A stretch of 64,000 bases of DNA from a virus (taxonomy: Duplodnaviria > Caudoviricetes), in IMG/VR virus record IMGVR_UViG_3300005545_000008, positions 7,529 to 71,528 of that record; one strand, written 5' to 3'. The stretch's first letter is position 1; every line of letters starts with the position of its first letter. The translations under genes and the position numbers were made by a program. The notes below the pieces were generated by a model. That model did no database searches and was not told the DNA's origin. It was given only the letters and a program-made list of their open reading frames with translations. Positions 22,499 through 23,468 of this stretch are shown piece by piece.

Positions 22499-22615
22499 TT
22501 AGCGCTCATTCAGTAGCGCTTCCTTACAAAGGGGATGATATTGCTTTTTACCAAAAGGCTTTGGATTATTTTTAATCGGCTTATGGCATCTCGCGCATAT
22601 AATTGTTTTAGGCAT
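22499..22615 (-). CDS. 38-aa CxxC...HxxC zinc finger (absent from ORF track)
   Basis: MPKTIICARCHKPI...YHPLC; TAATG coupling. Confidence 0.55.
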   Translation of the reverse strand: MPKTIICARCHKPIKNNPKPFGKKQYHPLCKEALLNER

Positions 22616-22812
22616 TATTTCTTACTTCCCGTTCCACCTTGTAATGGATTTTGAATGTTTCGCCTTCTCTTATTCAGCATTTCTTTATTCTTTTGTTCCC
22701 AGTCATAATTTCTTGCACATTTAGGATGGAAAATCATTTGAATTGAATCTCTGTAAATAAAATTTCTTCCTACTTCTTGCCTACATCGAGAACACTTTAT
22801 CTTTTTGGGCAT
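22615..22812 (-). CDS. CxxC...HxxC zinc-finger protein
   Basis: MPKKIKCSRCRQEV...FHPKC; AAGGA RBS. Confidence 0.65.
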   Translation of the reverse strand: MPKKIKCSRCRQEVGRNFIYRDSIQMIFHPKCARNYDWEQKNKEMLNKRRRNIQNPLQGGTGSKK

Positions 22813-22873
22813 AATTATCCTTAACTCTTAAAGATCTAACGATCTTCGTACTTTTCGTTGTCTTTCTGATTTT

Positions 22874-23340
22874 AGATACAACTCTGTACCCCCCTAGACT
22901 GGGGAGACATACACATAATATAGAAAATGTATGTCTTATGAGGACCACCGGTATGGTGGTGTCTCCCGGAACCAAGTCACTTAGGCCATCCCTCCTACCT
23001 CAGGAGCACGGTATTAATCGTACGGAGCGGGGTATCAGTACTTCATTTACTCACGTGTCATTCTTACTGAAGGGATGACTTCAATGTTGTCCAGTCTATC
23101 CTTTCGGACCCACACCAATCCTCGACTGTCAGATTTCTCTACCCGGTACAGTGGCTCTGGGATATACACGGGGTGACTGGTGGATACTGTATCGTAAAGT
23201 ATACGGAACGCATGTATTTCTCACTAGGAGAATGCCTACTCGCCCGTTAGGCCCCGGATTTAGCTGTATCGCAAATGCGAGCATCACCTTCGGTCGCTAT
23301 GACGGGCGAACCCCGTTTGTTTTTAAATTAAGTTGTATCT
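22874..23340 (-). ncRNA. Large (~467 nt) structured ncRNA candidate
   Basis: Ends pair through perfect AGATACAACT/AGTTGTATCT; many internal helices; G-U pairs fit the minus strand; no credible ORF. Confidence 0.65.
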
Positions 23341-23348
23341 GGGCATAG

Positions 23349-23392
23349 CAAAAGCCCCTAGAGGAATTCGTGGTAGGAACTCTAGGGGCTTT
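23349..23392 (-). terminator. Intrinsic terminator with 16-nt loop (possible attenuator)
   Basis: 13-bp stem AAAGCCCCTAGAG/CTCTAGGGGCTTT plus T tract. Confidence 0.75.
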
Positions 23393-23398
23393 CAAGTA

Positions 23399-23425
23399 TT
23401 AATTGTACCTCAGGCGTCCCACCAC
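23399..23425 (-). CDS. Putative 8-aa leader peptide (MVGRLRYN)
   Basis: GAAAGG RBS then GTG GTG GGA CGC CTG AGG TAC AAT TAA, between promoter and terminator. Confidence 0.4.
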   Translation of the reverse strand: MVGRLRYN

Positions 23426-23439
23426 GTCAACCTTTCGTT

Positions 23440-23468
23440 AGTCTAGCAGACTGGTCCGTCAGTGTCAA
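23440..23468 (-). promoter_or_regulatory. Leftward housekeeping-sigma (HrdB-type) promoter
   Basis: TTGACA-17-TAGACT. Confidence 0.8.

Follow-up and report, generated by a model that had tools for sequence, protein, structure and literature searches.

In the satellite phage P4 the immunity RNA CI, of ~70 nt, is cut out of an early leader by RNase P, and in the phi29 family the pRNA, about 120-170 nt long and of one fold across relatives, belongs to the DNA-packaging motor of these small podoviruses. Large RNAs with intricate folds and no known function are uncommon; phages carry several of them (ROOL, GOLLD). For raiA the plan is P1, P3a-P3b, P4, P5, P6, PK1 and PK2, in about 200-250 nt (PMC12968392). 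Here we analyze a 64-kb stretch (the window; 64,000 nt) of the 71.5-kb IMG/VR virus record IMGVR_UViG_3300005545_000008, estimated to be 52% complete, in which a structured element lies inside a gap of ~710 bp without genes. A first-pass annotation of the window had placed there, at 22874-23340, a ~467-nt structured non-coding RNA, possibly an expanded raiA- or ROOL-class RNA.

Comparison with related phages shows the core of this element (about 23316-22940, ~400 nt) to be a conserved, multi-helix domain with a predicted pseudoknot, here called type A, which occupies an exchangeable slot in an early-leader scaffold. We read the interval 23350-22813 on the minus strand as a probable ~540-nt 5' leader of a leftward early operon, and give this favoured reading as a whole a probability of about 55%. 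Promoters, a hairpin named T1, the structured RNA, and then a ribosome-binding site with ATG (22812) follow one another in that order on the minus strand.

Conservation and covariation

Taken alone, the single sequence is suggestive of structure but not decisive. As first annotated, G+C content is raised (0.46-0.49, against 0.33-0.40 in the flanks) and no open reading frame (ORF) is credible: the longest in the stretch have 40-65 aa, five spurious ORFs of the element have no exact counterpart among the called proteins of a collection of 15 billion, and their frames are disrupted by insertions of 34, 14 and 24 nt in the homologue L014. Perfect inverted 8-mers number 8 against 2.0 in dinucleotide shuffles (p~0.02), and 7-mers 16 against 7.6 (p~0.04); minimum free energy (MFE) z-scores of -2.3 (minus strand) and -2.7 (plus strand) are modest. 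All helices listed at first can be read in the sequence, the AGACATACA/TGTATGTCT hairpin perfectly. The 10-bp terminal inverted repeat that had been taken to join the ends (22874-22883/23331-23340) is indeed perfect in the window, but only 5-6 bp of it are kept in the homologues L012 and L014. Because some 10-bp inverted repeat appears in this stretch in ~10% of shuffles, the terminal helix alone is not significant; it also competes with a local hairpin, 22890-22875. The ~467-nt interval holds a real structured unit, but the conserved unit is wider, from about 23350 to 22813.

Two further lineages carry the element: L012/L013, reached through the protein cluster of ORF65 (the first gene past the leader), at 87% identity, and L014, a mosaic relative with three insertions, found by a viral-contig scan with a conserved 21-mer. 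Nucleotide identity of the element to L012 and L014 is 80-99% per 100-nt window, against 63-80% for the neighboring glycosyltransferase gene. Contigs from public runs (rhizosphere, soil, freshwater, wastewater) cover it at 96-100% identity with different flanks; X4 lacks ORF65, and X5 has another gene on the left and a replaced right flank. All known copies of type A come from metagenomes. A BLAST search of 50,697 phage records with the region gave no match, viral-contig scans with five conserved 19-25-mers gave L014 or nothing, and 185,579 prokaryote genomes scanned with two conserved 21-22-mers held no copy. The element is absent from contigs of the glycosyltransferase relatives P0003, P0005, P0006, P0007, P0010 and P0012, and the P0009 contigs (L025/L026) hold L014's copy and no new variant. 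The one match of a metagenome 20-mer scan, L005, was set aside as chance, lying inside a protein-coding gene with dissimilar flanks.

Covariation was assessed on three distinct full-length sequences (window, L012, L014) together with partial variants. RNAalifold on the three, minus strand, gave about 140 pairs before the pseudoknot region was corrected; the corrected model has 135 pairs, with 98% of cells paired. Compensatory double changes occur at 16 pairs, against 6.8 ± 1.9 in shuffles (0/500 reach 16), and controls in which partners were slid by 1-3 columns gave 0-3 doubles. The first-pass annotation had pointed to covariation among phage homologues as a check, and these counts, with clean controls, bear it out. 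L014's three insertions each fold as a hairpin at a helix tip, the 34-nt one directly after the invariant hairpin 23316-23302, and in place of UCC/GGA this phage has a 9-bp hairpin whose two G.U pairs are possible on the minus strand only.

The changes are spread over the model (Table 1). The closing helix of Domain I (23245-23236/23214-23206) shows G.U, A-U and G-C at four positions with zero mismatches, and stays paired in soil and freshwater variants at 23239-23244 and 23208-23210; the hypervariable hairpin that it encloses (23232-23218) has indels in X5, X8 and L014. Helix 23182-23175/23120-23113 of Domain II has three compensatory doubles and hairpin 22965-22955/22949-22940 has two. Between the window and L012 the CAUU/AAUG, GUCAU/AUGAC and CAGUA/UACUG helices of the pseudoknot domain have 1, 3 and 2, with every cell paired, and one predicted pseudoknot (CAGUA/UACUG) is supported. 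Large invariant blocks give no covariation signal in these three sequences: the near-invariant core is 99% identical to L014 over 23000-23099, and the long-range helix CCGGGGCC/GGUUCCGG, with two G.U pairs on the minus strand, is invariant, so that no covariation can be read there.

Three of the hairpins listed at first covary among these homologues. ACCACC/GGTGGT has two compensatory doubles; TCC-GAAA-GGA changes a U-A pair to G-C in L012 and is the one exchanged for a 9-bp hairpin in L014; AGACATACA/TGTATGTCT retains its stem while its loop varies. The proposed GTCATCCCT/AGGGATGGC helix fails, one arm being altered wholesale in L012 while the other is invariant; since the same L012 changes preserve the GUCAU/AUGAC hairpin and the pseudoknot, these replace it in our model. 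On the minus strand, TCGCCCGT/ACGGGCGA is better explained by the local hairpin 23316-23302 and the Domain I closing helix. CTGTACC/GGTACAG is present in the sequence, but rival helices compete for it. The core of the annotation stands: the element is a candidate for a large and highly structured non-coding RNA, conserved and probably read from the minus strand, on the grounds of conservation above that of the flanking genes, the 16 compensatory pairs and the hairpins inserted at helix tips.

Strand of the RNA

The functional RNA is probably the minus strand. This strand is favoured because its model has fewer broken cells (2.0% unpaired, against 5.1% in the best plus-strand model, there mostly C.A), because covarying helices hold G.U pairs where the plus strand would have A.C, because the leader context fits (leftward promoters, the T1 U-tract, a ribosome-binding site and ATG at the 3' end), and because a plus-strand T-run is lost in L014. 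The early remark that G-U pairs favour the minus strand is borne out both by the covarying helices and by the L014 replacement hairpin. Counting against this assignment, Watson-Crick compensation is strand-symmetric and the best plus-strand fold has 18 doubles; the alifold energy is -126.6 for plus and -124.1 for minus, and single-sequence MFEs do not separate the strands.

It is very unlikely that the functional transcript is instead the plus strand, as a ~500-nt antisense RNA that would end at hairpin 23301-23317 with its T-run, or at T1, and would oppose the leftward early operon. A terminator-like site at 23301-23321 and a promoter-like site at 22786-22815 would suit such a transcript, as would MFE and alifold energies equal to or slightly better than those of the minus strand, and the C-to-T changes in TCGCCCGT retain G.U pairing there. 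However, the T-run after this hairpin is the one missing in L014, the excess of broken cells falls on this strand, the two G.U pairs of the L014 replacement hairpin do not form on it, and the promoter-like site is weak (9/12 matches) and lies within the start region of ORF65.

Relation to known RNA families

At gathering scores, none of 4227 Rfam families matched in a cmscan of the whole window, and the proposed raiA/ROOL identity is given up. Permissive scans (E<=10) of the region, L012 and L014 found no raiA, ROOL, GOLLD, intron, RNase P or riboswitch match; in Rfam 15 there was likewise none to GOLLD, OLE, HEARO, group I/II introns, RNase P, tmRNA, 6S or riboswitches including cobalamin. 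Sub-threshold matches at E<=10 were a hairpin-level one to ctRNA_pGA1 on T1 in the window region, and 6A, whalefall-1 and mir-5045 in the homologues. Over the whole 71.5-kb record RF03072 (raiA; gathering score 101.3 bits) had no match at E<=10, and neither had RF03087 (ROOL; 99.1 bits), a result that is weak alone, control genomes being matchless as well, and with which the Rfam-wide scans agree. The stems of raiA (PMC12968392) could not be mapped onto our model of ~20 helices over ~400-540 nt, with one pseudoknot of another layout. The '~250 nt extra at the 3' end' of a free-standing RNA is also to be revised: the domain is embedded in an mRNA leader, between terminator hairpin and ribosome-binding site.

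A divergent, expanded member of raiA, ROOL or GOLLD is therefore barely credible: it has in its favour the proposed resemblance of short segments and a broad similarity to other large ornate RNAs found in phages, against which stand the lack of any match to these families at E<=10, the position inside a leader, and helices that differ from the published plan (PMC12968392). Our best reading is that the domain belongs to no catalogued RNA family and is a new, rare structured RNA domain.

Two other candidates were tried and dropped. (i) A cobalamin riboswitch had been suggested, by eye, by GGUG...AAAUCC, GCCACUGUA and CCGGGAGAC; no cobalamin model matches at E<=10. (ii) A MITE or other small transposable element does not fit an element that is single-copy in the record, whose 10-bp inverted repeat is not conserved in L012/L014, whose 8-nt direct repeat does not lie beside the left inverted-repeat arm, and whose two 21-22-mers are absent from prokaryote genomes.

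An exchangeable slot in a shared scaffold

In L002, the closest IMG/VR phage (glycosyltransferase 80% identical), the genomes are collinear on both sides, and 22629-23340 is replaced by unrelated DNA, with the right breakpoint exactly at 23340/23341. The T1 region is retained, with unrelated central sequences, in L002, L006, L007, L008, L015 and L024. Most relatives examined, including the Streptomyces-phage-like L004, have a common scaffold of 5' module, central domain (200-450 nt in the sister phages) and 3' module. The 5' module consists of promoters, T1 and a short CAUGCCC motif (read in L002, L006 and L024). The 3' module consists of an ACAUAC hairpin, a G-run, a small hairpin, an A-rich linker, a Shine-Dalgarno sequence and ATGCC(C/T)AAA. 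Central domains fall into several types: A in the window, L012 and L014; C in L006 and L024; a third common to L007, L015 and L008; another in L002; and others in L003/L004.

The 3' module is common to types A and C (L024, L006) and partly to L003/L004 (nhmmer E=0.034 and 1.9, in the matching place and strand), and the small hairpin 22890-22875 has counterparts in other leader types with other stem sequences, GAAUAG/CUAUUC and AUAGA/UCUAU. With the element profile, nhmmer found at the other loci a weak match to the 3' module only, and full-length alignment of type A with type C or L003/L004 leaders gave no credible similarity beyond that module. Type C (L006:1840-2287 and L024:1340-1786, minus strand) has copies 81% identical, with 6 compensatory pairs and 0 broken among 113 predicted.

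Within the 5' module, the T1 loop (23364-23379) has 8-10 nt of complementarity to a stretch of the same strand that lies 28-41 nt upstream (in the window 23418-23427, within the P2 spacer). This pairing is found in 7/7 phages tested (window, L002, L004, L007, L008, L015, L024), with a different pair of sequences in each. So strong a covariation points to a pseudoknot, or to trans pairing of a short P2-T1 RNA with P1 transcripts, and because of it the entry of RNA polymerase into the leader looks regulated. A second T1-loop target, inside the element (GGUAGGAG), was not significant, 15% of shuffles being equal.

Two explanations need no RNA. The first is non-functional mosaic DNA, i.e. decayed small genes or a recent insert whose likeness comes from exchange and whose helices arose by chance. 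Several observations would suit this explanation: the locus is a hotspot of recombination, one breakpoint falling exactly at 23340/23341 and another near 22628; ORF65 comes and goes by recombination between the starts of paralogous genes; L027 has an HNH gene inserted at this locus; an 8-nt direct repeat (TGGGCATA) stands on both sides of the leader; and the MFE z-scores are modest. Yet changes are biased to retain pairs (16 doubles for 6.8 expected; slid controls 0-3), indels fall at helix tips, the carriers have diverged by 13-22%, enough to destroy unconstrained pairing, and the element has one copy in the record and none in the prokaryote genomes scanned with the two 21-22-mers; we consider mosaic DNA very improbable. 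The second, that the element acts as DNA, as a replication origin or cluster of protein sites at a divergent early/late switch with helices incidental or formed in single-stranded DNA, is if anything a little less probable still. Gene orientation flips and the cumulative GC skew has its minimum at the element, and it repeats a 13-mer of the P2 region and the 9-mer that contains CCTNAGG; against this, neither iterons nor tandem repeats nor an AT-rich unwinding block could be found, compensatory doubles, hairpin-tip insertions and a pseudoknot are hallmarks of folded RNA, and sister phages swap the whole sequence for unrelated DNA while retaining the flanking genes. Both explanations fit the compensatory pattern poorly.

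Organization of the predicted leader and its locus

Table 1. Features of the predicted leader and its surroundings, in 5' to 3' order on the minus strand
Feature	Coordinates	Strand	Description
Tandem sigma-70-like predicted promoters	23402..23468	-	Consensus scan, 10/12 matches each; point leftward into the leader
P1	23468-23440	-	TTGACA-17-TAGACT
P2	23430-23402	-	TTGACG-17-TACAAT
T1 hairpin	23347..23392	-	Hairpin 23392-23351: 13 bp, G+C-rich, 16-nt loop, then UUUU; perfect inverted repeat
5' linker	23302..23346	-	A/U-rich; includes the 5' arm of the terminal helix (23340-23331) and invariant hairpin ACGGG-GUUCG-CCCGU (23316-23302)
Domain I	23193..23288	-	Invariant hairpin 23288-23262; long-range 5' arm CCGGGGCC 23257-23250; hairpin 23205-23193
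Domain I closing helix	23245-23236/23214-23206	-	Encloses hypervariable hairpin 23232-23218
Domain II	23092..23189	-	Helix 23182-23175/23120-23113; invariant single strand AAAUCUGACAGUCGA; UCC-GAAA-GGA hairpin 23109-23098
Domain II invariant 9-bp helix	23172-23163/23150-23142	-	With 12-nt invariant loop
Pseudoknot domain	23036..23086	-	CAUU/AAUG 23086-23083/23047-23044; GUCAU/AUGAC 23079-23075/23061-23057; loop CAGUA 23069-23065 with UACUG 23040-23036
Near-invariant core	22940..23034	-	Helices 23034-23028/23002-22996 and 23023-23019/23010-23006; invariant segment GGUAGGAGGGAUGGCC; 3' arm GGUUCCGG 22973-22966; hairpin 22965-22955/22949-22940
3' module	22813..22935	-	Hairpin GACAUAC.../...GUAUGUC 22935-22906; C4/G4 hairpin 22904-22891; small hairpin GGUACA/UGUAUC 22890-22875
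3' module, continued		-	A-rich linker; hairpin 22847-22830; Shine-Dalgarno AAGGA 22822-22818
ORF65	22615..22812	-	First gene past the leader; small, Cys-rich (MPKKIKCSRC...); paralogue of the next, 38-aa gene; outside the RNA

P2 is kept in L012 and L014, and the promoter region is homologous in L002, L006, L007 and L008. T1 reads as a predicted intrinsic terminator or attenuator, on the minus strand only, with the structured RNA downstream of it; by sequence it has the G+C-rich hairpin, the U-tract and the position downstream of a promoter that mark intrinsic terminators, marks that were sought in this upstream module. An equivalent of T1 stands ~170-210 nt before the glycosyltransferase gene in 7/9 loci scanned, and its U-tract lies on the minus strand in the window, L002, L007 and L003. 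The 5' linker is shorter in L012 and mostly deleted in L014.

We note some peculiarities of the leader sequence: (i) An invariant stretch of the structured core (22981-22995, minus strand) reads GGAGG, G, AUG GCC UAA, a Shine-Dalgarno-like block with a two-codon start-stop frame, at a GGAGG-to-AUG spacing too short for normal initiation. (ii) The P2 -10 region (23396-23414) and the invariant core (22996-23023) have in common a 13-mer (one mismatch) and a 9-mer with the palindrome CCTNAGG, in permuted order. (iii) The 8-nt direct repeat TGGGCATA (ATGCCCA on the minus strand) occurs at 22806-22813 and 23340-23347, either side of the leader; one copy is the start of ORF65, and the other lies just past T1, with no ribosome-binding site.

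The phage is an uncultured soil phage distantly related to the Stanwilliamsviridae phages of Streptomyces. Left of the gap, small ORFs run leftward, ORF65 (22812-22615) being the nearest; right of it, rightward genes encode a GT4 glycosyltransferase (~50% identical to those of the cultured Stanwilliamsviridae Streptomyces phages, of ~131-135 kb), endonuclease VII, a class II ribonucleotide reductase and an amidase endolysin. The flip in gene orientation and the cumulative GC skew minimum coincide with the element, which is single-copy in the record. Streptomyces phage Yaboi (NC_048730, 17857-18410) has the same divergent layout, with a 552-bp unannotated gap between gp43 and the glycosyltransferase gene gp44, and L003 has a T1-like hairpin and the 3' G-run motif in the equivalent gap.

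ORF65 is absent or replaced in other carriers of the element: the leader is joined directly to the 38-aa gene in X4 and to another MPK... gene in X5, and the start codon is gone in L014. We found no ORF65 homologues outside its own 90% cluster. ORF65 and its neighbor (22615-22812 and 22499-22615, minus strand) are adjoining small Cys-rich paralogues of 65 and 38 aa, MPKxIxCxRC..., and the 38-aa protein is wrongly clustered with fish zinc-finger proteins in the protein collection. Recombination between paralogous gene starts may shuffle the locus, as the small genes begin MPK... and X4 lacks ORF65 in exactly this manner. In L027 (1016-1510) a gene resembling HNH homing endonucleases (NUMOD4 and HNH_3) is inserted just upstream of the glycosyltransferase gene, which again marks the locus as an insertion hotspot.

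What the domain may do

That the domain is a functional structured RNA of the leader we consider likely. Polymerase starting at P1 or P2 would reach it only by read-through of T1, and entry by this route alone would make the RNA early and controlled. The domain would act as RNA, independently of the adjacent ORF, because the domain is conserved even though X4 and X5 have a different ORF there and L014 lacks the start codon. The compact domain might be released, or persist, as a stable RNA serving as scaffold or decoy by binding a factor of the host or the phage; its exchange as a cassette from phage to phage would reflect adaptation to particular hosts or to an arms race. We put this specific mechanism, a stable factor-binding scaffold or decoy RNA with cassette exchange, forward as a tentative possibility.

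The context agrees with the leader reading in that no terminator lies between the domain and the ribosome-binding site. It would also serve a purely cis-regulatory leader, i.e. a metabolite, protein or temperature sensor, or an antitermination or stability element, acting through the 3' module on the early genes with no separate RNA. Such a leader would account for a domain that has no promoter or terminator of its own and always lies between T1 and the ribosome-binding site in the same orientation, for a junction to the first codons (ATGCCCAAA) kept with three different downstream genes, for a 3' module common to several leader types, and for a T1 module resembling a regulated attenuator. It accounts less well for L014, where the Shine-Dalgarno sequence and start codon are missing and the domain is still 80-99% identical, or for ~400 nt with some 20 helices, far above the size of sensor domains known so far; the Rfam riboswitch, T-box and leader families give no match, and pairing between domain and ribosome-binding site is unconvincing, the sole candidate being 5 bp with two G.U. 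We hold a purely cis-acting leader to be rather unlikely, and favour a factor-binding RNA over a purely cis sensor, although the data do not separate them.

Several points weigh against the leader reading as a whole. Statistical power is low with three full-length sequences, some changes are common to L014 and X5, and the structure was partly derived from the same alignment on which it was tested. Identity across habitats could partly reflect recent horizontal exchange instead of selection. T1 may stop most transcription before the domain, and a domain with no promoter or terminator of its own would need processing to yield a putative stable trans product. No transcript has been observed, and no public run is listed reliably as RNA; run X18 has two 151-nt contigs inside the element, but its RNA-Seq cDNA label is a guess and the contigs are no proof of a transcript.

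Beyond the favoured leader reading, one could speculate that Stanwilliamsviridae-like phages have a conserved early-leader 'RNA slot' through which large, mutually unrelated structured RNAs (types A, C, D and others) are traded, much as anti-defence proteins are among other phages, with type A as a new ~400-nt pseudoknotted trans-acting class that neutralizes or hijacks a host factor. We regard this broad proposal, taken entire, as unlikely.

Comparison with known systems

Type A, from uncultured phages of soil and freshwater, is a candidate addition, with covariation support, to the few large, intricately folded RNAs whose function is unknown. More unusual is the arrangement: a fixed early-leader slot with flanking control elements conserved out to cultured Streptomyces phages and a central RNA that is swapped. 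If the pattern holds, phage early regions would contain RNA-level accessory cassettes, and cultured relatives such as Yaboi would make the leader scaffold testable.

Like raiA (RF03072), a bacterial non-coding RNA of unknown function with a closing stem, the domain is compact, pseudoknotted and highly conserved, and raiA is found in Actinobacteria, which the cultured relatives of this phage infect, and in Firmicutes. However, raiA has about 200-250 nt (PMC12968392), whereas the domain has ~400 nt and follows another helix plan. In addition, raiA is a free-standing trans-acting gene, and the domain lies in an mRNA leader. With ROOL and GOLLD it has in common that it is a very large, intricately folded, phage-carried RNA of unknown function with no associated protein domain; these are ~570-800 nt long, whereas the element described here is rarer, lies between a terminator hairpin and a ribosome-binding site, and is interchangeable in sister phages.

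Riboswitches, T-boxes and the put/EAR antitermination RNAs resemble it in position, between promoter/terminator and the first ribosome-binding site of an operon, and in having a conserved fold, but the domain is several times larger, matches no such family and is kept where the translation start is lost (L014). The phi29 pRNA is likewise a phage RNA driven by an early promoter whose sequence diverges strongly between related phages, but the leader types described here show no detectable common central fold. P4 CI differs in its RNase P processing, and the T1 loop finds no significant target in the 400-nt domain; the two systems are alike in placing a functional RNA in the untranslated leader of an early operon, and the pairing of loop with leader that is tied to termination control in P4 has its counterpart here in the T1 loop.

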